From Candidatus Bathyarchaeia archaeon (GTDB taxonomy: Archaea > Thermoproteota > Bathyarchaeia > 40CM-2-53-6), in NCBI GenBank assembly GCA_050013255.1, contig JBEKFP010000003.1:218483-282482 (forward strand): a stretch of DNA of 64,000 bases. Direction: 5' to 3'. The notes under the pieces are model-generated. The model saw only the letters and a list, made by a program, of their open reading frames with translations, was not told where the DNA came from and searched no databases. Positions 8,828-22,919 of this stretch are shown here, piece by piece (positions within the stretch are counted from its first letter, which is position 1; each line of letters opens with the position of its first letter). Both the position numbers and the translations under genes were made by a program.

Positions 8828-9544
8828 ATGAAGACTAACATAATCGCATACTACAGGAAACATGATCCCTTCTCTAGATATCTAACAACCGACAAGCGAA
8901 GGGTGAAACAGATTTATGGGCTTTACACTTCAAACAAACGCCACTTTGGACGCAGAGTCTTAGATATTGCGTGTGGAGGCGGAGTCTTAGGCTTCATAGT
9001 GGAGAGAGAGGGTCGCTCATACACTGGCGTTGACGTTAATCCTGACATGATTTCGTCGGCCAGAACTCATGCAAAGGAGGTCGGGTCAAGAAACCGGTTC
9101 ATCGAAGGAGATGTAACCCAAATGAAAATCGAAGGAAAATTTGACACCATATGCATTCTGGGCAATGCATTATGTCACTTCTCAACGCACGATTTCTCAA
9201 GGATCCTTCAGAACACTGCCGCATGTAGCGAAAGAGGCGCTTACTTCATAGTAGATTATCGAGATATGGTGCGCCTAATGTTTCACAAAAAGTGGAATAT
9301 CAAGAAAAGGCTTGTACAGAAAGAACGGGGAAGAATCAGCACGACAGAGGGTTGTGACACAAGAACCGGGTTCGTTCTAGTAACGACTACAGACCTGCGT
9401 GGAAAGAGCGAAGTCGGATTCGCTCATGCCATATGGTCGCCATTCATTATCACACCCATCATGAATAATCATGGCTGGTCCATGGTAAAGAGAACATTCT
9501 CGAAGAGATTGTCTGAATGGCTCGATATCTACCGAAGAACCTAG
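8828..9544 (+). CDS. Class I SAM-dependent methyltransferase (sole gene between J9 and J10)
   Basis: VLDIACGGG, GVDVNPDMI, FDTI motifs. Confidence 0.9.
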   Translation: MKTNIIAYYRKHDPFSRYLTTDKRRVKQIYGLYTSNKRHFGRRVLDIACGGGVLGFIVEREGRSYTGVDVNPDMISSARTHAKEVGSRNRFIEGDVTQMKIEGKFDTICILGNALCHFSTHDFSRILQNTAACSERGAYFIVDYRDMVRLMFHKKWNIKKRLVQKERGRISTTEGCDTRTGFVLVTTTDLRGKSEVGFAHAIWSPFIITPIMNNHGWSMVKRTFSKRLSEWLDIYRRT

Positions 9545-9573
9545 TTGCCAAAAACGATGAACCGATATTTCTC

Positions 9574-9613
9574 GTGTGTGTGGGTATGCTGGTGCGCCGC
9601 CCCCGCCGCCGCC
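9574..9613. repeat. Junction J10 and left terminal inverted repeat: GTGTGTGTG | GGTATGCTGGTGCG | CCGCCCCCGCCGCCGCC
   Basis: Direct-repeat copy 2 at 9582-9596; TIR 9597-9613 is inverted at 18624-18639 and 20546-20562. Confidence 0.9.
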
Positions 9614-9632
9614 TAGATTAACTTTGTGGTTG

Positions 9633-9760
9633 GAACGACGGTAGGAACCGAACGACGACGGTAGGATTGGAGACGACGGAACGAGTACGACGACGCTAAT
9701 ACGAACGACGGTAGGAACGACGACGACACGCCGATGTTCTATGTTTTATAGGAATTGAAA
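9633..9760. repeat. Left subterminal repeats (GAACGACGGTAGGAAC x2 plus variants)
   Basis: Exact 16-mer at 9633-9648 and 9703-9718; degenerate inverted counterparts at ~18535-18597. Confidence 0.75.
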
Positions 9761-9796
9761 CACGTGGAAGCAACAGCACAGCTAAACTCGCACAAA

Positions 9797-10309
9797 CTAA
9801 AATCGCAGAAGGCTTGCAAGGTATTGAGCAACGGCGAATAGGAAGACGAGAACTACGCCTAGCAAGAATGTCAATAGCGCTTGATAGATTCTTGACTGAG
9901 ATTGCGCCTTGAGTTTCTTCGGGAGACCCGTCACATCTGCGACTAGGTACGCTAGGAGGTAGAGAGGCGGGAATATCAAAAAGAGCGACGCCGCCTTGAG
10001 ATGTGCGAGAGCGACAGTCAAAAATATCGTCACCACATATCCTCCTAATTCTATCGTCATGAGAAACAGCCCCGCTCTAAATATCCAGCAACTTGATGAA
10101 ACGTTGCCCCTCTCACCCTTTGGGGGATAATCCAATGTTTCCCACAACAACAAAACTGCGAGTGCAAAGCTTGTAATTGAAACCAGCTGAACAATTATTT
10201 GGTTACCGAAGTGGGCGAGGACTGCTGAAATGCCGCCGAATACACCAAACGCTTCTAGAAGTTTATCATTAGCTTCAACAAAATCTCGCAGGCTCTTCCT
10301 TTGCTCCAA
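9797..10309 (-). CDS. Hypothetical membrane protein
   Basis: About 5 hydrophobic helices. Confidence 0.6.
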   Translation of the reverse strand: MEQRKSLRDFVEANDKLLEAFGVFGGISAVLAHFGNQIIVQLVSITSFALAVLLLWETLDYPPKGERGNVSSSCWIFRAGLFLMTIELGGYVVTIFLTVALAHLKAASLFLIFPPLYLLAYLVADVTGLPKKLKAQSQSRIYQALLTFLLGVVLVFLFAVAQYLASLLRF

Positions 10310-10425
10310 ATCTTGACGCTCACCAACCTTCGGGATTCGTTATCCACATCGAAGGGATTGCACGAAGGAACTACTTAATCCGTATTCTTGGCCCTTTATT
10401 CTTATCATGCCAGTATGCGTTGACG

Positions 10426-11160
10426 TTAGAAATGTTGTTCCGATGGTTCGGGGCAAAGATGGTGGAGCAATTGGACAACGGTCTTGATCGCTCGTCTGCA
10501 ATCAGATTCGATGACGCTTTTTTCTGTGACTTTTCCGTTCGCAATCATTGGCATTAGGCCTCTGGTCAAGGCCTTCGCATACTTGTCATAATTGCCTGTG
10601 TGCAAGGAAGGATTTCTAATTCTTGAAAGCCAGAGCAAGTCGATTTTCTCTCTCTTCGTCAACGTCCCTTCGCTGGCGAGCCTTCTGACCAACCGCCAAT
10701 ACTGCGCTTCGGAGCCTTTCGCTTTACGCCGGATAACAGATTCGACTACAGCTTGACACATGATAATTGTTGCGTAGTGTGCGCCGTTCATATAGCACGC
10801 CCCAACCTCCGGCAAAAGCAGACTCGTGAGAACGGGGATCCTCCACATTTCGTGAGGAAATTGTTTTCTCAGCCAGCGTGCTCTTCTCTCTTGCTCCAAT
10901 TCAAGTAACCGATCCCGTTCATCAAGATCGTCGGCATAGGGCCGCAATACTCCAGAAAAAGCGAAGGCGTCTGCCCCAGTCCAGTCATAAGGCCCGCTTG
11001 CCCATTCTTCAATGATCTGTTTTCGGCGGTGGAGCAGCGTCTTCGTTCTATTCTTCAATGACCGTTGAACCTCTACACAGGATACCTGTAGAGTTTGTTT
11101 TGGCGGATTACGTAGATTCCTAGATTTTCCTTGGGTATGTGTACCTTGAAGAAGTACCAT
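10426..11160 (-). CDS. DUF4145/HEPN-like protein (true start probably ~11010 or downstream)
   Basis: EVGACYMNGAHYATIIMCQAVVE and Rx4H motif RNPSLH. Confidence 0.6.
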   Translation of the reverse strand: MVLLQGTHTQGKSRNLRNPPKQTLQVSCVEVQRSLKNRTKTLLHRRKQIIEEWASGPYDWTGADAFAFSGVLRPYADDLDERDRLLELEQERRARWLRKQFPHEMWRIPVLTSLLLPEVGACYMNGAHYATIIMCQAVVESVIRRKAKGSEAQYWRLVRRLASEGTLTKREKIDLLWLSRIRNPSLHTGNYDKYAKALTRGLMPMIANGKVTEKSVIESDCRRAIKTVVQLLHHLCPEPSEQHF

Positions 11161-11531
11161 ATGCGCTGTCTTTCACGCCGTGTCCAGGGCGACGCCTTGA
11201 AAACTTCCACACGCTTGTAATCCCACTTACCCGTTTTCCTGTTCCTTGTTGTTCCGAAGCATAACTCTCTGTAAATGAATCCTTGTTCTCTCAGCTTCCT
11301 TTTGACCAAGGCGAGTTTTTCCCTCAGCCTCTTTGAGACGGGTAAATCTTCAGTTCTAGTTGTCTTATTGTATTTGAGGTACCATCTCTTCAGATCGGCT
11401 TCTTCGAAGACTGACTTCGCAACCCGCCGTATCGTGCCGTGTTCGTTTCTAAGCACTAGAACCCTGATAGTACGGCCTTTCACGTGGCGCTCTTCATATT
11501 GTAAGCGCCAGACCTTGAGCTTAGGAATCAA
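11073..11531 (-). CDS. Hypothetical basic protein
   Basis: 152-aa Arg/Lys-rich ORF in the same-strand gene run. Confidence 0.55.
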   Translation of the reverse strand: MIPKLKVWRLQYEERHVKGRTIRVLVLRNEHGTIRRVAKSVFEEADLKRWYLKYNKTTRTEDLPVSKRLREKLALVKRKLREQGFIYRELCFGTTRNRKTGKWDYKRVEVFKASPWTRRERQRIWYFFKVHIPKENLGIYVIRQNKLYRYPV

Positions 11532-11584
11532 CGCTCAAAACCCGTAAACACAGACGACGATAAGGGCGCTGAGAACCGTCTATG

Positions 11585-11905
11585 CTAACTGAGTTTCCTA
11601 CGTGGATGCGATAAACGATATTTCCTGTCGCTCTCACGTCTTTCCGCACGATGTGCTTCCCGATATTTTCTATCACTCTCTCGTCTTTCGGCACGGTGTG
11701 CTTCTCTATATTTCCTATCACTCTCACGTCCTTCTTTACGGCGCGCTTTTCGGTACTTCTCGTCCCTCTCATGTATTTCCGTGCGGTGTCCGTCCCGATA
11801 TTTTCTATGTTCCTCAAGTCTTTCCGCACGGTGCGTTTCTCTATATCTCCTATCGTTTTCTCTTGCCTTTTCAGGATGAAGAGACCGCCAACTTCTCCTT
11901 TTCAT
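11585..11905 (-). CDS. Charged repeat protein (~15-aa DRKYREAHRAERRES repeats)
   Basis: About 6 imperfect tandem repeats, also visible as ~45-bp DNA repeats. Confidence 0.55.
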   Translation of the reverse strand: MKRRSWRSLHPEKARENDRRYRETHRAERLEEHRKYRDGHRTEIHERDEKYRKARRKEGRESDRKYREAHRAERRESDRKYREAHRAERRESDRKYRLSHPRRKLS

Positions 11906-11917
11906 CTAATGCCACGT

Positions 11918-12415
11918 TCAGTGTTTTTCCTCGTGTTTCCAAGTTCTATACTTCAATATGGAAATAATCGCACCTCGGCTGACGCCGTATTCTTTGGCGA
12001 GGGTCCCAAAGCCGACTCCAGCTTTATGGTCTCTCGCATATCTCGCCCGAATTTCGACAACTTGATTCCGAGTTAGCTTATGTGCGGGCGAGTCTTCTCC
12101 TCTGAGACCTCTGGAACGGCCCTTTCTCGCCCTGTCTTCGGCGTTCTCCTTGAGTGTTCCGACAGACAAGTGCGCCGGATTTACGCAAGCACGGTTATCG
12201 CAATGATGCAAAACACACTTTCCTTCGGGTATGCGTCCATATTCGAATTCCCAAGCAACTCGGTGAGCCATAGGCGTATGTCCGCGGTAATGGAATCGGC
12301 CATATCCATCTTGGTTCTTGACACCCATCCAAATCCAACAACCATTATCCTCTTTGCGGACTTTTTCCCAAAAGCGCTCCTTGACAGATGATACCCTCCT
12401 TGGCATGATTCTCAC
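11918..12415 (-). CDS. HNH endonuclease with C-terminal HTH
   Basis: CWIW, AHRVAW, VLHHCDNRACVNPAHL, EN motifs; LAKEYGVS HTH. Confidence 0.9.
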   Translation of the reverse strand: MRIMPRRVSSVKERFWEKVRKEDNGCWIWMGVKNQDGYGRFHYRGHTPMAHRVAWEFEYGRIPEGKCVLHHCDNRACVNPAHLSVGTLKENAEDRARKGRSRGLRGEDSPAHKLTRNQVVEIRARYARDHKAGVGFGTLAKEYGVSRGAIISILKYRTWKHEEKH

Positions 12416-12464
12416 ATGTCCAACATTGCGTCTCTAATCATGCTAGGAACAACTTGCCAATCAA

Positions 12465-12599
12465 TCAATTCTTCAGCCAGAGTTTGATAGCTTCCTCTAA
12501 CGCTTTGATTACTGCACCTTTCTGACCGCCATACTTCTCCACGGCTTTCAGCCTGAACTTCTTCTCTAGCTCTTTGTCAATCTTGCCATACACTACCAA
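12465..12599 (-). CDS. 44-aa ribbon-helix-helix (CopG-like) regulator, divergent from cas1
   Basis: Translated by hand: MVVYGKIDKELEKKFRLKAVEKYGGQKGAVIKALEEAIKLWLKN. Confidence 0.7.
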   Translation of the reverse strand: MVVYGKIDKELEKKFRLKAVEKYGGQKGAVIKALEEAIKLWLKN

Positions 12600-12615
12600 A
12601 CCGTAATCCGCTCAA

Positions 12616-12670
12616 CTTGCTATCTAGATAACAAGCCTTATACGTTTTAGCTTGTGGTCTAGATAACTTG
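12616..12670. promoter_or_regulatory. Paired operator-like sites in the RHH/cas1 divergent promoter
   Basis: Near-palindrome CTTGCTATCTAGATAACAAG (12616-12635) and related CTTGTGGTCTAGATAACTTG (12651-12670). Confidence 0.55.
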
Positions 12671-12696
12671 CGATATAGCATTTCGAGGTTTGAGGC

Positions 12697-13911
12697 ATGA
12701 ACCCGTTACATCTCGGCGGTTTCGGCGTCGAAATTCAAGCAAGCAACCCAAAGCCACACGCCGAACTCATGATTACGAATGGACGGCGAAGCGAAAGCCT
12801 ACCAGAACGCTACCTCTTTCTGCCAAGAAAAATAGTATACGATTCAATCATACTCGAAAACTGTACTGGACATGTTTCACTTTCAGCCTTACGCTGGTTG
12901 AGCAAACACAACATTCCAATCTTCTTCTTAAACTTCGACGGCTCAACCATCAGCAGCATTCTACCACCAACACCAGTTAAAGCGGATTTACGTGCCGCAC
13001 AATTTCAAGCCGCCAACGACCCTGAAAAGAAGTTCAGAATCGCCCACGCGCTGGTAGAAGCGAAGATCGCTAGGAGCATACAGGTTCTAGACTGGTTAGC
13101 TCAGCGTTACGACATACAAAGAGAAGTACAAGTCACAAACGGCGAAGCTGTCAAGCTAGGCGAAGCCTCCACGGTCAATCAACTACGCACCGTTGAGGGC
13201 AGAACGGCGCTTCGATATTGGGAAGCATTCCGCAAAACTCTGCCTGAATCTCTACATTTCGAGGGACGCATGACCACAAGCCACAACAACAACGCCTCCG
13301 ACCCATTCAACGCGGCGCTGAACTATGGCTATGGATACCTGAAAATTATGTGCAGAACGGCGATTAACTCTGTGGGACTAGAGCCCGCCGTAGGCTTCCT
13401 GCATGAACTCAGCTCCACTCAAACAGCAGAAAGCCTAGTCTATGACTTGGAGGAACCATTCAGATGGCTCATAGACCTCTGTGTGATTCAAGCGTTCGAA
13501 ACCGGCAGCCTAGGCTTGGCAGACTTCGCTTTCACCAAAGACAATTACGAATATCGAATTGAGTGGGAAGGTAAGACACGGCTCCGTCAATTGCTGACGG
13601 AGACATTCAATTCAAGAGTAAGGTATGGCGGGCAAGTGTTGAAGTGGGACACCGTAATCGAACAGAAAACCTTGGAACTCAGCCGATACTTGACGGGAAA
13701 GGCGCCCACGTTGGACTTCAATGAACCCGCACCGACGTTAGAAAGACAGGATAACCGAGAAGTCAGAGAAAACATTCTGGCCCTAACACAGTCTGAGGCT
13801 AGGCAACGTGGGATTGGGAAGAGTACGCTTCACTATCTACACAAGAACGCACATGAGCGCAGTTCTTTTAGACTCTATGAGCCTGTAAGACGAAAGCTGT
13901 TGGGCGGTTAA
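12697..13911 (+). CDS. cas1: Solo Cas1 of casposase type with C-terminal HTH
   Basis: VSLSALRWL, VEG, NASDPFNAALNYGY, GLEPAVGFLH, SLVYDLEEPFR; C-terminal GIGKSTLHYL HTH; no cas2 or canonical CRISPR nearby. Confidence 0.95.
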   Translation: MNPLHLGGFGVEIQASNPKPHAELMITNGRRSESLPERYLFLPRKIVYDSIILENCTGHVSLSALRWLSKHNIPIFFLNFDGSTISSILPPTPVKADLRAAQFQAANDPEKKFRIAHALVEAKIARSIQVLDWLAQRYDIQREVQVTNGEAVKLGEASTVNQLRTVEGRTALRYWEAFRKTLPESLHFEGRMTTSHNNNASDPFNAALNYGYGYLKIMCRTAINSVGLEPAVGFLHELSSTQTAESLVYDLEEPFRWLIDLCVIQAFETGSLGLADFAFTKDNYEYRIEWEGKTRLRQLLTETFNSRVRYGGQVLKWDTVIEQKTLELSRYLTGKAPTLDFNEPAPTLERQDNREVRENILALTQSEARQRGIGKSTLHYLHKNAHERSSFRLYEPVRRKLLGG

Positions 13912-13912
13912 T

Positions 13913-14677
13913 TTGAAAGAAGTTTTCCTAAGCCACGCGCACGAAGACAAGGCACTAGCCGGAAAAGTAAAAGAGATTCTCGAAGCGAACGGGGTAAGTG
14001 CGTTCTTGGCTCATATGGACATGGAAGTCTCGGAAGAGTGGAGAACTGAAATATCCCGACACCTTGAGACAAGTTCAGCCCTAATCGCTATCGTGACGTC
14101 GAATTTCGGCAAATCAGCCTGGGCAAACCAAGAAGTTGGAATAGCCTTCGAGAAGAAATTACCGCTAATTCCGTTGATGTTCGACGGAAGCGCGGTTCTG
14201 AAGGGTGTGATCGAAATGTATCAGGGAATCCTTGTTTCCGAAAATAATCTAGTAGATGTGGTAAAGAGCACTATTCCGACAATAAACAAGGGAATCCCTT
14301 CAACCGAGAGAAAATTCTACGATGCCCTAGCAGGCATCCTAAATCGTTTGATACTAAGGTGGCAGACTTACAAGAGCCACCTATCAAACATAAAATGGAC
14401 TCAAGAAGCTATTGAAGAGATTAAGAAGAATCTTCGCAGCGATAGAGAGGAACTTCTCAATTTGGTCTCCAATGCGCCAGAAATCGATTTCGGCGTCAAA
14501 AATCAGACCACAGTTATCATGAGTCAAATTGACGTATTCGCACTCTTCAAAATCAATTTCAACAAGCCCTATGCTGAGACTTACGGCGAATTCCAAGAAT
14601 TAGAGCATAAAGGAGAACAGGTATCTTACACTGCTCAAGCCTTACGCGGTTGGTTGCAAACCGAGAAACTCTCCTAG
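13913..14677 (+). CDS. TIR-domain protein
   Basis: VFLSHAHED and SAWANQEVG (catalytic-type Glu), followed by a helical C-terminal domain. Confidence 0.85.
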   Translation: MKEVFLSHAHEDKALAGKVKEILEANGVSAFLAHMDMEVSEEWRTEISRHLETSSALIAIVTSNFGKSAWANQEVGIAFEKKLPLIPLMFDGSAVLKGVIEMYQGILVSENNLVDVVKSTIPTINKGIPSTERKFYDALAGILNRLILRWQTYKSHLSNIKWTQEAIEEIKKNLRSDREELLNLVSNAPEIDFGVKNQTTVIMSQIDVFALFKINFNKPYAETYGEFQELEHKGEQVSYTAQALRGWLQTEKLS

Positions 14678-14879
14678 CTAGAATGACTCTGAAGTCGTTT
14701 CTCACTTTCGACACGCGCGATTCTTGTCTCAGTGGAGGCGTGGTATAGCTGATGCGCCAACAACCTTTCAGGATTTACTCGAACGTGAAAGAGAAAATGA
14801 GTAATCCGCCCCTTGGGCAGCTGTGATTGAATCGTATACTATACATAAGCCTAGGCTAGTCTAACGTTTAGCAGAAATG

Positions 14880-15386
14880 TCATAATGCAACCTTCTTCTT
14901 CGGCTTACTATGCGGTTTGTATGGCGGTGGGGCTCCAGCATTTCGGCGAGCTTTTCGCATGTTCCACTGTCTGAATCTTCTCTTTCGGGCCTGAATGATC
15001 TTGTTCCTAAACTCGTTACTGTACCAACGTAACAACAGATCAGAGGGCGGCGCTTCTTCACCGTAAGGCTTTGCGCTTAGTTCATGGGCGGCGGCTATTT
15101 TCGCATAAATTTCTTCATCAAGAGGAAAATATGCGTAGTGCACTCCACCATGATACATGATTTTCAACTGCCGACTAGAGAGGTTGTACGTTAAATCGAA
15201 ATGCGGGGTTTGCGACAGTCTACTGAGCGTAACGCAATCTCTATTTTTCTTTCTTCTCTTGTCCAACCCTAGTGTTTCGACTTCTCCCGCAATCTTGAAA
15301 ATTGGTTTACCTGTTTCGTTGTCTAATTCAATTTTCACTTGCTGTTTGCGTGAACCTTTGAGGCCGGTAGCCCTGATGTAACCCAT
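14880..15386 (-). CDS. Hypothetical basic protein
   Basis: 168-aa ORF; no recognised motif. Confidence 0.5.
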   Translation of the reverse strand: MGYIRATGLKGSRKQQVKIELDNETGKPIFKIAGEVETLGLDKRRKKNRDCVTLSRLSQTPHFDLTYNLSSRQLKIMYHGGVHYAYFPLDEEIYAKIAAAHELSAKPYGEEAPPSDLLLRWYSNEFRNKIIQARKRRFRQWNMRKARRNAGAPPPYKPHSKPKKKVAL

Positions 15387-15867
15387 GGACTACGCTCTCT
15401 TGCACTTCTTGAGTCTGAACTCGAAAGTGTACTTCGACGGGTTCCTGTCGATTTTCTTGGCTATGATCTCGGGAACTAGAGTACGGAATTCAATGAGACG
15501 GCTTTCACGGCATGTCAGCGTTGACGTCTCCGCTTGCTGAAGAAGAAGAACAGCCGTGTTACAACTGAAGAAGAAGAAGAATTATGGCGAAATGAAGAAG
15601 AAACTTCTGTATTCAACTCTAATCGCCTTTTCCTCTTATTTGCGGAGCTCTTTACCTGAAAGAAGCTCGAAATAACCTTAGTTTTGAACTGTATAAAAAG
15701 TCTACTGTCCCGCAGTCAGACGACAATACAACACTCGGTGATCGCAAACCTGAGGAAGCAGACCGAGAATAGTCTTGACCCAGCTCCCTCAGGGGAAATG
15801 GCGATTCCAGGTCTATTATTGTCTGCGAGTGGTAAATAAATCTACTTATTTTTGAGTAATAGGTTCG

Positions 15868-16248
15868 GTGCCACCCCTTCTTGAGCACGTATTAAGGGGA
15901 GCGATTTACCCAAAAATGAGTAATTCTAAAATACCTGCGAGCGGGATACGATGGCTGAGTATCCCTATGACCGTTCCCCAGGTCGTTCCATCAGACCTAC
16001 TCTCAAGGAAGGAGCGCGAAGCACCCACAGACACTAAGCAGAGGATAAGCTTCAGGGAACTTGCGGAGCGTCGGATCATCACTAAAGGCCTCAACGGAGC
16101 GGCCGCCTGGTTGAGGGCTAAGGTAGGAGTTTTCCCAATCGATATCGAGATGCAGCAGTGTGGCGATGTCTACGAAATGGTTGTAAAAGTAACATATCGC
16201 CCTTTACCACCAATGCCTGAGGTCGTGTATGAACGTCAGGAATCATAA
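15868..16248 (+). CDS. Hypothetical protein (start probably 15917)
   Basis: ORF only. Confidence 0.4.
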   Translation: MPPLLEHVLRGAIYPKMSNSKIPASGIRWLSIPMTVPQVVPSDLLSRKEREAPTDTKQRISFRELAERRIITKGLNGAAAWLRAKVGVFPIDIEMQQCGDVYEMVVKVTYRPLPPMPEVVYERQES

Positions 16249-16431
16249 CAACAGAACGAAGAACGACTCGGCGCCATAGTTATGTGAATCCGATGATATC
16301 AAATCGAGGCTCAATTCTAACCAACGCTGGCAACAAGTCGATGAGTTCTCTCTCACTGTTCCAAAACGATTCGGCCCAACTCTCATTAGTTCCCCATCTA
16401 CAATTCTAAAGAGGCCTTACAGGCGGTTCCC

Positions 16432-16917
16432 ATGTCAGTGAACGTCACGGAATCGAGTCTTGATCTCAACACACTCTTGAGCAAACTCGGGTATCAACCC
16501 GACCAAATAGGTTCGTTATTGGGTGCTGACGTCCTGATGTTCCCGAAAGACTTGGAATCTGCCGAGTCATCGTTTGATGACAAATCAGTATCCATTAAGA
16601 AGACCATTGAGAAGCAGCTTCGAATTGAGGTGCTGACCAAGCAGGGCGCTAAGTCTCATTACGAAGCTCAAAGAGCCGCAGACATCCTTGTCCCTGCATT
16701 AGTCTTCTTAGGGGTGCAAACTTTTGATATCGGTAAGGGAATAATCACCAGCTGGGTTTATGATAGGTATCTCCAGCTACGCAACCGAGGTCTGACACCA
16801 AGTGTAGCATTGAAGTTCGTTGTGATTGATAAGAAGAAAGGGATTAGGAAGGAAGTAAGCTACGAAGGACCGGCCGAGCAATTGCAAGACACTTTGAAGA
16901 ATCTCAAACTGGATTGA
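16432..16917 (+). CDS. Hypothetical protein coupled to the next gene
   Basis: One hydrophobic segment; 4-bp overlap with the downstream ORF. Confidence 0.6.
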   Translation: MSVNVTESSLDLNTLLSKLGYQPDQIGSLLGADVLMFPKDLESAESSFDDKSVSIKKTIEKQLRIEVLTKQGAKSHYEAQRAADILVPALVFLGVQTFDIGKGIITSWVYDRYLQLRNRGLTPSVALKFVVIDKKKGIRKEVSYEGPAEQLQDTLKNLKLD

Positions 16918-17711
16918 AGTTGCCTAGACTCTCGTCTCTAAGACCCGTTCGACCGCGAACCATCACCGTGCTTTCACCGGAGCAGAGGGAAATTCTTGAG
17001 AAAGGATTGTCTAACGAGGAAAATGGACACCTTGGTAAAGCTGCTAGTCTGTTCCAGTCCCTTTATGAACAGATGCAGAGTGCCAACTCTGAAGTCTCGC
17101 AAGACTCAGCGTGTATGAAAGCGAACGCTGACTTAGTATTAGCCAGACTGGAAATCACCCGCAATCGAGACGAAGCGGAGAAACTGTTCAGAAGCACGAT
17201 ATCGGCTCTAGAAGTTGCGCTAAAGATCGATCCGTACTGGGCGGATTATTTCAATTTACGAGGGAAAATCGTGGCCTACCTGCATACTGATTTCGGCTGC
17301 AAGATAGTTCGTAATAGAGGAGTTTGGGAAATCAAATGTATCGATGTATCTAACGCACTACGAATCCCAGGGATAAGTAGAAGCGAGACTTTTGATCTTG
17401 AGTGCTCAATCTGTAAGAAGGACCCAATGTTTTGTCCGCATGTTTCGGGGGAAGTCTACGATGGCCGCCTAGCTCTAGGCATAGTAAGACATTTGGAAAT
17501 CAAAGAACTTTCAATAATTACGCCGCCACATGTTCCCGAAGAGCGTACAATCGGAATATGGCCTCGACCCTTAACCGACGGCGATATCAGGAAGCTCTAT
17601 TCGGAGAAGACTGCAAGGCAGATAATAGATTCAGGAGTGATTCGTTGCAAGGATCTCGTTAGAATAATTCGTAAGAACAATCTGGGCGGTGTGGAATGGG
17701 TGCAACATTGA
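16914..17711 (+). CDS. Helical-repeat protein with a C-terminal CxxC-x6-CxH metal-binding domain
   Basis: TPR-like N-half; CSICKKDPMFCPH...YDG...ELSI. Confidence 0.55.
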   Translation: MKLPRLSSLRPVRPRTITVLSPEQREILEKGLSNEENGHLGKAASLFQSLYEQMQSANSEVSQDSACMKANADLVLARLEITRNRDEAEKLFRSTISALEVALKIDPYWADYFNLRGKIVAYLHTDFGCKIVRNRGVWEIKCIDVSNALRIPGISRSETFDLECSICKKDPMFCPHVSGEVYDGRLALGIVRHLEIKELSIITPPHVPEERTIGIWPRPLTDGDIRKLYSEKTARQIIDSGVIRCKDLVRIIRKNNLGGVEWVQH

Positions 17712-17811
17712 CGAGCAAACAACAACTCAAGGATTGCAGAGTTAGGCATCTACCGGAAGAAAGCCCACGCTCTTGGCACTGTCTAAATGCAATCCTCTCG
17801 CAATGTACCAA

Positions 17812-18396
17812 TCAGCTTCTTCTGAGTTTCTTATCATATGTGAAATGTTTCTGAATCAGCGCTCTTGTCAGAAACTCTATGTCCTCATCTTGAGGCAGGA
17901 AATCTGATGTTGCTTCGACTATCTTCCCTATGTTTCCCCTTTTGTAAAGGGCCATTCCCAGAGACATGTGACGGCCAAAGATTCTCGCCAAGAGTTCTTT
18001 CTTCCCCCAGAGTAACTGTCTAAATTCCTCTATCTTTCGGTCGTCTGGGATATTTTGATGAAACCCTAGAATCAGGTTCGTCCGTTGAACTCCATTCTTC
18101 AGATAAAGAAGGGCCTCGCCAATTCCTTTGTAGAACGCATCCCAGCCCAATGACTTACTTCGTTCATCAAACTTGATCAATTTCATTTCATAGCCGTTCA
18201 GTCGGTATTGGTTCTGTGAAATCTTGTAGAATTCCAGGGCGTCAATGTCTGGATTAATCCTCCTTCCTGCTATGGCCGAGACCTTGGGGTACGCTCCATA
18301 TGGCAAGACAGACTTTAGCAATTCGTCTTCGGAAACAAATCGATCATACGTCATGGCGTGTGTCATTCGAGAGGCCTTGTGATTGGGCTGGTCCAT
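17812..18396 (-). CDS. PD-(D/E)XK nuclease-like protein
   Basis: PDID...GYEMK...GIGEALLY resembles restriction-fold motifs II-IV. Confidence 0.55.
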   Translation of the reverse strand: MDQPNHKASRMTHAMTYDRFVSEDELLKSVLPYGAYPKVSAIAGRRINPDIDALEFYKISQNQYRLNGYEMKLIKFDERSKSLGWDAFYKGIGEALLYLKNGVQRTNLILGFHQNIPDDRKIEEFRQLLWGKKELLARIFGRHMSLGMALYKRGNIGKIVEATSDFLPQDEDIEFLTRALIQKHFTYDKKLRRS

Positions 18397-18623
18397 AGGT
18401 TTAGTCTACCTGACCAGCGGATTATTCTTTCTGATTTTGATGTTCTGGTAGTGTTATGTCCGAGCTTAACTACTCACGCGGATGGTTCATCATGTGGTCC
18501 TTCATGTTTTATGATTCATAAGAAATCAGGTTCTTATCCTACTCCTGCCGTTCCTACTCCTACCGTACCGAACAGGTTCCTGCCGTCATTCCTACCCTTC
18601 GTGTTGTCACAATCCTAATATTA

Positions 18624-18662
18624 GCGGCGGCGGGGGCGGCGCACCAACGATACCACACACAC
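18624..18662 (-). repeat. Junction J11 (inverted) with internal right TIR: GTGTGTGTG | GTATCGTTGGTGCG | CCGCCCCCGCCGCCGC
   Basis: 14-mer at 18640-18653; near-perfect inverse of 9574-9612. Confidence 0.9.
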
Positions 18663-18687
18663 TTTTCAAACGAACGCAGTCCGATGG

Positions 18688-18717
18688 TCCGGCGACCGCA
18701 TCAGTGATACTACAGAC
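18688..18717 (-). repeat. Junction J12 (inverted, degenerate): GTCTGTA | GTATCACTGATGCG | GTCGCCGGA
   Basis: 14-mer at 18697-18710; TGATGCGGTCGCCGG resembles the tRNA-Gly 3' end TGGTGCGGCCGCCGG. Confidence 0.55.
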
Positions 18718-18729
18718 TAAGCGCGACTT

Positions 18730-20193
18730 CTATGTTGCTAGGCCACACTGCTTCCTGAGTTTCTCCATTAGTTCTCGGTATCGAGGGTCGGCCCTTGCCT
18801 TCGCGCAGAGAGGTGAGTACATCACGAACAGGGAAATTATCGCATGCTCTTCAAGGGCCTTGTTCACGTACTGGAAGTATGAGTCGAGGTCTCCGAGCGC
18901 GTGGTAGACAAACCCCATGTAGTTGAAGCCTATTGGACCCACCTTGGCATTCTCAATCTTCTTGATTGCGAGGAGTGCCGTATCTCTGTCGCCTTCCATG
19001 GCCGCGACGACCCCTCCCATCCAAGCGACCCTAGAATTGGTGGGATCGAGCTTCTCAAACTTCGCAAGGAGCTCCTTAGCCTTCTCAAGTTCCCCTTTGG
19101 CTAGGTAGTACTCCGTCATTCCCCTGTAGGTCCACGCAGGGGCAATCTGCTCGTACTTCTTCCAGTGCTCCAACGCCTCCTGCTCCCTCCCCGTATAGAG
19201 ATACGCTAGCCCCACAAGCCAGGTGAACCGCGGCCTCACGGGGTCTAGGCGGTATGCTGTCTCGATCTGCCTAACCATCTCCCCCTGGTTTCCCTTGATT
19301 CCCTCCACCTCAAACAGTATCCAGTAGGCGTCTGGGAGACTCGGGTTAAGCTCCAAAGCCTTCCTCGCCTCCGCCTCCGAACCTAAGACATCGTCCTCAT
19401 CGAAGAGCAAAACAGAAAGCACCGCGTGGGCCTCCGCAAGGTTCGAGTCGAGATTAAGGGCACGTTCCAATAATTGCCTCGCAGTCGAATGAGAGACATC
19501 AAACGGTTCCTTTCCGACGTTGGAAAGATAACTGTGGCACTCTGCCGCGCCGACGTATGCCCTCGCGAACTTGGGATCCAGTTCGATGGCTTTCTCAAAG
19601 AGGCTGATAGCCCGCTCTGTTGTATCTATGCTTACTTCCCGTAGTAGTTCTCTGCCTTGCAAGAAGTACGTGTACGCCTCAGTGTTCTCGGTAGGCTTCT
19701 TCTGTAGGGTTCGCTTCTCAGAGTCGAGTAGCTGGGTCTTGAGCTCTCCCGCCACCTTCTCAGCTATCTCACTCTGAACGGCGAAGATATCGTCTAAGTT
19801 CTTGTCATAGTGGGAGGACCACACGTGTTCTTCCGTTCCCGCGTTGATTAGCTGAACCGTGACCCTGACCCGGTTACCTGCCTTCCTTACACTGCCTTCG
19901 ACCACCGACCCGACGCTGAGTTCCTTTGCGATTTCGGAGACATTCTTCTCCTTCTTCTTGTAATTCATCACTGACGTCCGAGCTATGACCTTCAAACTCT
20001 TCACCTGAGAAAGCCTGTCAATCAACTCCTCCGTCATGCCGTCCGCGAAGTACTCGTCGTTAGGGTCGGGGCTCATGTTCTTCATGGGCAAAACGGCAAT
20101 CCGGAGCTTGTCTAGCGTCTGCTGTGCCGTGGAGAACGCGGGGGGAATGAAGCTCTTCGACCGGGCGAGGTCGGCTGGCTGCAAATGATTCAC
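18730..20193 (-). CDS. TolB-like plus TPR-repeat protein (adenylate-cyclase-associated type, no cyclase domain)
   Basis: IAVLPMKNMS, EYFADGMTEELI, VEGSVRKAGNRVRVTVQLI, then TPRs. Confidence 0.85.
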   Translation of the reverse strand: MNHLQPADLARSKSFIPPAFSTAQQTLDKLRIAVLPMKNMSPDPNDEYFADGMTEELIDRLSQVKSLKVIARTSVMNYKKKEKNVSEIAKELSVGSVVEGSVRKAGNRVRVTVQLINAGTEEHVWSSHYDKNLDDIFAVQSEIAEKVAGELKTQLLDSEKRTLQKKPTENTEAYTYFLQGRELLREVSIDTTERAISLFEKAIELDPKFARAYVGAAECHSYLSNVGKEPFDVSHSTARQLLERALNLDSNLAEAHAVLSVLLFDEDDVLGSEAEARKALELNPSLPDAYWILFEVEGIKGNQGEMVRQIETAYRLDPVRPRFTWLVGLAYLYTGREQEALEHWKKYEQIAPAWTYRGMTEYYLAKGELEKAKELLAKFEKLDPTNSRVAWMGGVVAAMEGDRDTALLAIKKIENAKVGPIGFNYMGFVYHALGDLDSYFQYVNKALEEHAIISLFVMYSPLCAKARADPRYRELMEKLRKQCGLAT

Positions 20194-20545
20194 GATTACC
20201 TGACTGCGTATCTAGCTAAGCTTGCCGAGCCGGTTGTTATAGAGCCTTTCCTCAACTCGCACGCGAGAGACTAGGTGGTTCAGCAGTCACTTCACATTCG
20301 TATTGTGACGAATCATCGTTCCGTATTCTCTCGTTCTTTAGGTCTTGTTTCTTGTAGGAAATCGTATGGTATTATTGGTCAGCATGTTTGTATTGGCATT
20401 GTCGTACGTGACGTCCAAGCGTCATGTTTTATGATTCATAGAACATCAGGCTACCGCCACTAAGAGAATGTTGTGCGAGCGAAGCGAGCACCAAGCTAAC
20501 CAAGTAAGCGAGCGAAGTGATCTTCAACAGGTTCCAACTTCGGGC

Positions 20546-20592
20546 GGCGGCGGCGGGGGCGGGTATGCTGGTGCGGGCGAGCGGATTTGAAC
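20546..20592. repeat. Right TIR and junction J13: GGCGGCGGCGGGGGCG | GGTATGCTGGTGCG | N11-TTGAAC
   Basis: Direct-repeat copy 3 at 20561-20575, followed by the T-loop mimic. Confidence 0.9.
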
Positions 20593-20604
20593 TCTCGTTT
20601 GGGG

Positions 20605-20631
20605 GAGAGCTTGGTGCGGCCGCCGGGATTC
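20605..20631 (-). repeat. Junction J14: duplicate of the tRNA-Gly 3' end and its flank
   Basis: GAGAGCTTGGTGCGGCCGCCGGGATTC matches 22818-22844 at 26/27. Confidence 0.85.
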
Positions 20632-22824: not shown

Positions 22825-22919
22825 TGGTGCGGCCGCCGGGATTCGGACCCGGGTCGTTGGCTTGGAAGGCCAATGGACGCGTAAACGCAATGTCCTAGAC
22901 CAGGCTAGACTACGGCCGC
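22825..22919 (-). tRNA. tRNA-Gly(TCC), CCA encoded, with a 17-nt intron at position 27/28 (22873-22889)
   Basis: Acceptor GCGGCCG/CGGCCGC; anticodon arm TTGGC-CTTCCAA-GCCAA after splicing; BHB/BHL-like GGAC/GTCC helix with ATT bulges. Confidence 0.9.

Follow-up and report, generated by a model that had tools for sequence, protein, structure and literature searches.

Casposons, defined as self-synthesizing, were discovered through searches that required cas1 and polB side by side (PMC4046053), and members lacking PolB could consequently not appear. In family 2, whose reference elements are AciBoo-C1 of Aciduliprofundum boonei, the MetMaz elements of Methanosarcina mazei (PDB 6OPM) and NitNCS1-C1 (PMC4046053, PMC4779613, PMC6563490), the core consists of PolB, an HNH gene and two HTH genes. 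How casposon ends are released, and whether PolB is needed, has been stated to be open (PMC6977970). Excision and tandem insertion in vivo have been published for a gene-less mini-casposon, the host having retained the casposon PolB (PMC10359463). A different, PolB-poor casposase group is already in print: the proposed 'family 5' from hot springs, suggested in the passages compared to comprise non-self-replicating transposons (Salgado et al. 2022, PMC9755687). In a search that lay mostly outside the subscription literature, we found no paper pairing a casposon with Bathyarchaeia, and one review pairing a casposon with Bathyarchaeota.

The element described here lies in a window of 64,000 nt, the whole stretch of DNA analysed, from a Candidatus Bathyarchaeia archaeon. 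Delimited by sequence and junction mapping, it spans 10,965 bp (9597-20561), has CCG-type ends, carries neither PolB nor primase, and is present as a single copy in the genome. Judged from its sequence, this 11-kb stretch is a genuine transposable element; it is also a composite that heads an array, rather than a simple single insertion. A sequence-only reading had recognised terminal inverted repeats between identical 15-mers (9582-9596 and 20561-20575), and both hold: the inverted repeat is 17 nt long and 100% complementary (9597-9613/20546-20562), and the 15-mer occurs three times genome-wide against 0.005 expected, the third copy lying at 3964-3978. The duplication, earlier put at 13-15 bp, is refined to 13-14 bp by about 96 junctions across the genome, which define a 14-bp unit. 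This unit, a tRNA 3′-like heptamer plus 7 nt, lies on the minus strand as a distal copy (9583-9596) and a leader-proximal copy (20562-20575). If it is the duplication, the right tip (20546-20561, minus strand) is one C short of the left CCG repeat tip (9597-9613, plus strand), which implies either a 13-bp cut at the latest insertion or the loss of one base. These microsatellite CCG tips end in 3′-G, whereas family 2 has GGG tips, and 3′-C is the end found in casposases tested so far. Further in, an AT-rich palindrome at the left end (9737-9753, plus strand), with counterparts on the minus strand at an internal end (18507-18523) and the right end (20427-20443), is a candidate site for the casposase HTH. 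It occurs in 10 of 16 ends against 0.6 in shuffles, an overstated contrast in that the palindrome was defined on the same ends.

The target resembles that of family 2 in its duplication of about 14 bp starting CGCA, its T-loop motif in the leader and its tandem insertions. The leader (20576-20592, minus strand) mimics a tRNA T-loop outside any tRNA gene, and its motif TCAAATC (20584-20590) stands 8 nt before the duplication, a placement shared with the target of the A. boonei casposase (PMC6614799). Family 2 targets a tRNA gene; here the nearest is 2.2 kb away and the site is a tRNA mimic. Each junction has the look of inverted arms flanking a short core that varies, and three tyrosine recombinases are encoded in the genome. 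The junctions could accordingly be read as attachment sites of a tyrosine recombinase, with an overlap of 7 bp and cas1 as a passenger. We regard this as improbable in the extreme: none of the three recombinases lies within the element or the junction clusters, the same sites also receive canonical GGGG casposon ends, Cas1 is the sole gene common to all autonomous elements, and the leader spacing equals that of the tested casposase target.

The pairing of the variable heptamers supports the reading favoured below. An identical 7-mer partner in direct orientation exists for 12 of 29 distal ends, against 1.7 by permutation, while an opposite-strand control gave 3 of 39 against 3.8. The 7 nt are drawn from a small repertoire, giving a chance of about 3% that any two random sites agree. 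Because of this small repertoire, and because older array members have equally perfect duplications, the perfect duplication from which a recent insertion had been argued is weak evidence of recency.

Directly to the left lies an older Cas1-less element of 5,604 bp with CAC tips (3979-9582), the second member of the array; beyond it stands a third identical duplication (3965-3978, minus strand), giving two inserts in tandem between three identical duplications. Junctions also occur inside the older element, and a stretch of 858 bp (88%) is common to it and an element with GGGG ends on contig C1. Comparison with genome G004, a close relative, delimits a whole island of 19.3 kb (1285-20621), in place of which the orthologous locus has 73 bp between flanks that are 92-94% identical. 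The exact empty site that had been predicted did not turn up when the orthologous locus was compared in four relatives; instead, G004 lacks the entire island and retains a degenerate leader only. Remnants are abundant in such islands, among them the tail of a Cas1 at C3:171762 and, at C1:770467, an orphan CCG end.

The composite structure is evident from a third, internal CCG end (18623-18639, minus strand), which matches at 16 of 17 positions, is inverted relative to the left end and has its own target copy. After this copy (18640-18653) come a CAC tip and a portion of a cassette without Cas1. Together the three form a captured cassette (18640-20115, plus strand), which over 1,480 nt is 78.6% identical to a self-contained cassette at C1:1352968-1355410. 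Neither the third end, nor the tRNA-mimic target, nor the older neighbour had been noticed in the sequence-only reading. Captured DNA of this kind, and a genome containing dozens of cassettes without Cas1, set the locus apart from family 2.

The casposase is a Cas1 of 404 aa (12697-13911, plus strand), of the family-2 type with a C-terminal HTH. The motifs and HTH had been judged intact, and indeed residues E167, H236, D250 and E253 are invariant across 121 homologues, and the alignment to the best PDB match, M. mazei casposase 6OPM (E 8e-77; best CRISPR Cas1, 2e-22), extends through the HTH to residue 395. In the Cas1 tree, a check proposed earlier, the protein groups with family-2 casposases, apart from CRISPR Cas1. 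Cas1-solo group 1, with its incomplete active site, was ruled out, since all four catalytic residues are present. Values of dN/dS of 0.13-0.16 against five relatives, with synonymous sites saturated, indicate that Cas1 is under purifying selection. As in the casposon superfamily, the locus combines a Cas1 group 2 active site, no linked CRISPR or cas2, and terminal inverted repeats with a duplication; unlike it, there is no PolB.

No frame in the element approaches PolB in size, as had been remarked: the longest has 493 codons, against 866-965 aa for canonical family-2 PolBs. Searches with Pfam PF00136 and PF03175 found no PolB in the element, but Pfam alone was rejected as proof, since it gives canonical casposon PolBs poor scores or misses them. 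A custom profile built from three canonical casposon PolBs was used instead, which detects PolB at 8 of 12 outgroup loci as a positive control. Run in six frames with stops read through, it found none in the element, at the 24 clade loci or elsewhere in the genome, and no divergent polymerase or primase was found inside the element. PolBs of 614-639 aa in relatives were considered as the missing partner and rejected, as they do not adjoin Cas1. Among viral contigs, no relatives were found.

The Cas1 clade to which the element belongs has 25 members (support 100), and PolB is missing at all 24 readable loci, which range from genus to class level. At least 12 complete clade elements of 5.7-17.5 kb have matched duplications, and for a further one of 4.9 kb the contig end falls within the duplication. 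The absence of PolB is, on this sequence evidence, a lineage trait rather than a one-off deletion. A decayed ordinary casposon, immobile since PolB was deleted after insertion, would be in keeping with the broken PolBs known among casposons, the many island remnants and a truncated cargo gene in the element. This reading is nonetheless strongly disfavoured, and we think it very unlikely, given no trace of PolB even through stops, its absence across the clade, purifying selection on Cas1, and tips unlike the GGGG tips of PolB-bearing elements. Rather, we think it probable that the element is an intact member of a Bathyarchaeia lineage derived from family 2, in which PolB was lost at the base and which persists PolB-free by the mechanism outlined below.

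The earlier description of the element as polymerase-independent stands in that it encodes no polymerase, but a primase-like gene and ATPase of a second Cas1 element, on C1 of the same genome, could act in trans. This second element belongs to the CAC-type branch of the clade, which has a small primase-like gene; the CCG branch has neither PolB nor primase. At 12 CAC-type loci a conserved protein of 110-150 aa with DxD and GxH motifs adjoins an ATPase; on C1 it is encoded at 1336103-1336465. In structure the protein matches Prim-Pol in the Atlas (TM 0.5-0.58), whereas its predicted model matched generic folds only in the PDB. Our element might on these grounds be a helper-dependent satellite, with its own integrase but dependent for copying on the primase-like protein and the ATPase that CAC-type elements encode; an ATPase homologue does occur at one CCG locus (L048). 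We consider this unlikely, if well short of negligible. In G003 and G004, two genomes 75-78% complete that have CCG elements, no intact primase-type Cas1 partner was found. Further, the CCG branch is nested in the primase-bearing branch in one tree, but not once outgroups are added (AU p 0.19), and CCG elements may descend from CAC elements or be their sister.

For the intact PolB-free lineage that we favour, we propose that the casposase binds the short CCG tips, its HTH perhaps resting on the palindrome 100-150 nt inside. Excision would most likely proceed without element-coded DNA synthesis, as proposed for precise M. mazei excision. Insertion would occur at a tRNA-3′-like site read via the upstream T-loop motif, by a 13-14-nt staggered cut that host enzymes fill in to leave the duplication; the geometry is seen in the sequence and the chemistry is known from the A. 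boonei and M. mazei casposases. The leader-side site survives, new elements stacking as leader-repeat-insert-repeat, as the two inserts between three identical duplications show. Landing beside a Cas1-less cassette, followed by use of a distant CCG end, would place part of that neighbour inside the element; the composite is observed, the order of events is what we infer, and other routes are possible. This casposase and the second one on C1 probably act in trans to move, as well, those cassettes of the genome that lack Cas1. We speculate, with some hesitation, that the CCG branch represents a minimal Cas1-only transposon, composed of the casposase and a 93-aa cofactor, that moves without a DNA-synthesis gene and captures cassettes via a distant end. 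On this view the branch and its sister enzyme would together power a system, extending across the genome, of cassettes and of tRNA-mimic landing sites that the elements supply themselves. The branch might then be an extant form that links casposons to leader-repeat arrays of the CRISPR type.

The putative cofactor (15967-16248, plus strand) is a conserved companion of CCG-type elements, without known family or fold. A Cas2-like identity was rejected, its predicted model being one helix plus a hairpin without a fold match. On the minus strand are two basic proteins common to two other CCG elements, of 106 aa with 45-nt tandem repeats (11585-11905) and 152 aa (11073-11531); these and the companion could serve replication. 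A small ORF divergent from cas1 (12465-12611, minus strand), also found in two other CCG elements, is by inspection probably a ribbon-helix-helix regulator, without a Pfam match. As in family 2 there is an HNH endonuclease gene, here with a C-terminal HTH (11918-12415, minus strand), for which the other casposon loci fetched, canonical ones included, gave no homologue; unlike family 2, there is no upstream HTH gene. Other cargo comprises a TIR-domain protein, possibly defensive (13913-14677, plus strand), a probable membrane protein of 170 aa and a 244-aa ORF, both without family (9797-11160, minus strand), and ORFs of 168, 161, 265 and 194 aa without confident family (14880-18396). The truncated gene is a TPR gene (18730-20193, minus strand), whose 697-aa paralogue on C1 has an N-terminal KaiC-like domain absent from the element's copy.

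What is new here, on sequence grounds, is a PolB-free variant of casposon with a C-terminal-HTH casposase. Family 5, in the passages compared, also mostly lacks PolB and keeps the active-site residues, but lacks the C-terminal HTH and falls close to type I-A Cas1 phylogenetically, and target duplications, target sites and arrays are not reported in those passages (PMC9755687). By eye, the catalytic region of our enzyme follows the family-2 rather than the family-5 rows of Figure S8 in that paper. A widespread, selected PolB-free lineage with one branch lacking primase makes the need for PolB testable with a small enzyme and short tips, and its 3′-G terminal bases offer a natural test of casposase end specificity. 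Long-lived and stacking gene cassettes at tRNA-like sites, the lineage can be used to ask whether Cas1 alone moves DNA.

The arrays show Cas1 chemistry making repeat-insert-repeat rows of whole genes in nature, with implications for how CRISPR adaptation arose and how accessory genes turn over in soil Bathyarchaeia. As in adaptation by Cas1-Cas2, leader-directed Cas1 insertion duplicates a repeat and builds such rows. Unlike adaptation, the inserts are of kilobase size with defined ends, the element gives no sign of guide RNA use, and the genome yielded neither a Cas2 match nor CRISPR-spaced repeats. Comparable behaviour is known from composite transposons, MITE-like units and Tn7-like islands: adjoining DNA is taken up through a distant end, units lacking an enzyme are moved in trans, and insertions pile up at the same site. 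Here, the driving enzyme is Cas1 rather than a DDE transposase, and in many units a new landing site lies some 50 nt in from one end.

The element, a 10,965-bp Cas1 transposon with CCG tips (window 9597-20561), is best explained as an intact, PolB-free member of a Bathyarchaeia lineage derived from family-2 casposons, and we regard this reading as probable. The inverted 17-mer, duplicated 15-mer and cas1 gene described in the sequence-only reading are all where it placed them. The 15-mer occurs three times in the 2.46-Mb genome, against 0.005 expected, and all three copies are within the window. The 404-aa casposase encoded by cas1 (12697-13911) aligns over residues 4-395 with the M. mazei casposase 6OPM (E 8e-77), compared with E 2e-22 for its best CRISPR Cas1 match. 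The nearest named relatives are Bathyarchaeia. Its catalytic residues, previously judged intact, are indeed so: E167, H236, D250 and E253 are invariant among 121 sequences. Neither Cas2 nor a CRISPR array was found in the genome. A perfect 19-nt inverted repeat has one arm within cas1 (12832-12850) and the other past a TIR-domain gene (14824-14842).

The insertion site mimics a tRNA, and no tRNA gene lies closer than the one at 22825-22919. The site, read on the minus strand, runs from the leader (a T-loop mimic) through a tRNA 3′-like heptamer to a further 7 nt, with TCAAATC exactly 8 nt ahead of the duplication. The same 8-nt spacing was mapped for the A. boonei casposase target (PMC6614799), and the M. 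mazei duplication likewise begins CGCA (PMC6977970). The order in the window is leader, duplication, element, duplication, an older 5.6-kb CAC-tipped element, and duplication. Because it adjoins the leader, the element would be the youngest member of this array. In a relative, G004, 73 bp stand in place of the entire 19.3-kb island (1285-20621), between flanks that are 92-94% identical; the island is either younger than the split from G004 or was cleanly lost there. For the pair of stretches at window 20605-20631 and 22825-22851, the copy is degenerate in G004. Tandem 60-bp mini-units of CAC tip, leader and target copy occur either side of a MarC gene (2981-3053 and 3813-3888), and similar ones at many islands supply the elements' own landing site.

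Published work shows that casposases join ends to such sites with 14-15-bp duplications, that a mini-casposon without genes undergoes tandem insertion in vivo, and that a native casposon excises to leave one empty site (both PMC10359463). The element would work like a family-2 casposon; the casposase HTH would bind a subterminal palindrome, excision would proceed without element-coded synthesis, and gaps would be filled in by the host. GCGAGCGAAGCGAG-type motifs are present inside the right end (20460-20530), and similar motifs begin other units at C1:721329, C2:279778 and window 7580.

Testing for PolB required controls, for which canonical family-2 casposons were fetched. These have GGGG tips, short flanking duplications and ORFs of ~900 aa that contain both catalytic motifs of PolB. 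Because Pfam gives their PolBs low scores or misses them, it is insufficient by itself to establish absence. A custom profile built from three canonical casposon PolBs, searched in six frames with stops read through, recovered PolB, or part of it, at 8 of the 12 Cas1 loci of the outgroup, among them two Bathyarchaeia GGGG-type loci. It matched nothing in the element or genome, upholding the earlier claim that no PolB lies inside; the element's longest open frame is 493 codons. Pfam detected only three PolBs in the genome, every one on contig C2; protein-primed PolB, Prim-Pol and a second primase were all absent from its hits. Loci L113, L117, L119 and L120 are intact canonical family-2 casposons whose PolBs (866-911 aa) Pfam missed or barely scored, and such casposons may be miscalled PolB-less in automated surveys. 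PolBs of 614-639 aa in several genomes of the genus (L063, L065, L067-L071) do not adjoin Cas1 and do not resemble canonical casposon PolBs; they probably belong to another mobile element.

Since the defining PolB test was negative, the element falls outside the self-synthesizing casposons as published (PMC4046053), a class drawn from elements picked by cas1-polB co-occurrence. PolB-poor casposons are already proposed in PMC9755687, for a different group that lacks the HTH. A literature search of incomplete coverage found no paper on the present lineage. The locus contributes a CCG branch that lacks both PolB and primase, a test for PolB with positive controls, an orthologous locus from which the island is missing, and a cassette capture that could be traced.

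The casposase falls in a 25-row Cas1 clade (support 100). Readable DNA was available for 24 clade loci, and at all of them the element lacks PolB; at one, a cellular PolB is close by but beyond the element's bounds. At least 12 clade elements (5.7-17.5 kb) are complete: each has its two ends and a matching pair of duplications. A further 4.9-kb element is incomplete only within its duplication. Kin loci are not independent, and a single PolB loss at the clade base would be the simplest reading. Comparison of the casposase with five relatives gives dN/dS of 0.13-0.16 with dS above 1, and it has therefore long been kept under selection without PolB. That the element is a decayed casposon is improbable. 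Within the PolB-free lineage there are two end types, CAC and CCG. Most CAC-tipped elements encode, next to an ATPase, a small protein bearing DxD and GxH motifs (12 loci). Atlas ties this protein, a putative primase, to Prim-Pol folds; PDB fold searches with its model returned generic folds only. A profile search found this gene in no CCG-tipped element, including this one. CCG-tipped elements share a 93-aa protein (70 homologues), present also in a Cas1-less CCG element and without a match in fold searches.

The element is also composite. After a third CCG end (18623-18639) come a target copy of its own and a CAC tip. Beginning exactly at this target copy, window 18640-20115 shares 78.6% identity with the opening 1.47 kb of a Cas1-less, self-contained cassette (C1:1352968-1355410). 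The cassette's 697-aa gene includes a KaiC-like domain that the element's copy has lost. In the simplest history, a 9-kb core inserted beside the cassette and then moved using the more distant CCG end, an order that we infer; other routes require more deletions. A second composite (L051:7934-19916) holds a CCG element within a CAC mini-end, with near-identical flanking duplications and outer ends that appear mixed, CCG and CAC-like. At L074:3314-18142, one CAC and one CCG Cas1 element stand in tandem with three identical duplications in common, the Cas1 of the CCG member falling outside the main CCG branch.

Some 96 junctions of this type, joining leaders, CAC, CCG or GGGG ends, occur in the genome, whereas a Markov-model genome yields 1-2, and the junction motif is present in each of 22 further genomes from the genus. 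Of 29 distal ends, 12 had an identical 7-mer partner in direct orientation, where permutation gives 1.7, and a control on the opposite strand stayed at chance; the junction repeats are therefore duplications. That they are recombinase sites is very unlikely; the genome does have three tyrosine recombinases, all outside the junction clusters. Intact casposases number only two, the element's own and that of a 16.3-kb element with 45-bp CAC repeats (L006:8273-20000 and L007:1-4556; C1:1330273-1346555), which carries a primase-like gene, an ATPase and defence-type cargo (AIPR, DndB-like, DNA methylase). A helper-dependent satellite, which would need the primase-like protein and ATPase of such CAC-type elements, is a less likely account of the element. 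Under the favoured reading of a PolB-free lineage, Cas1-less cassettes may be moved in trans. A Cas1-less element of 5.2 kb whose long GGGG repeats are canonical (L008; C1:716105-721311) occupies the same kind of site and has 858 bp in common with the older element in the window. An orphan CCG end (L009; C1:770467) resembles the element's left end, and a lone casposase HTH-tail fragment lies at C3:171762-171887 (L012).
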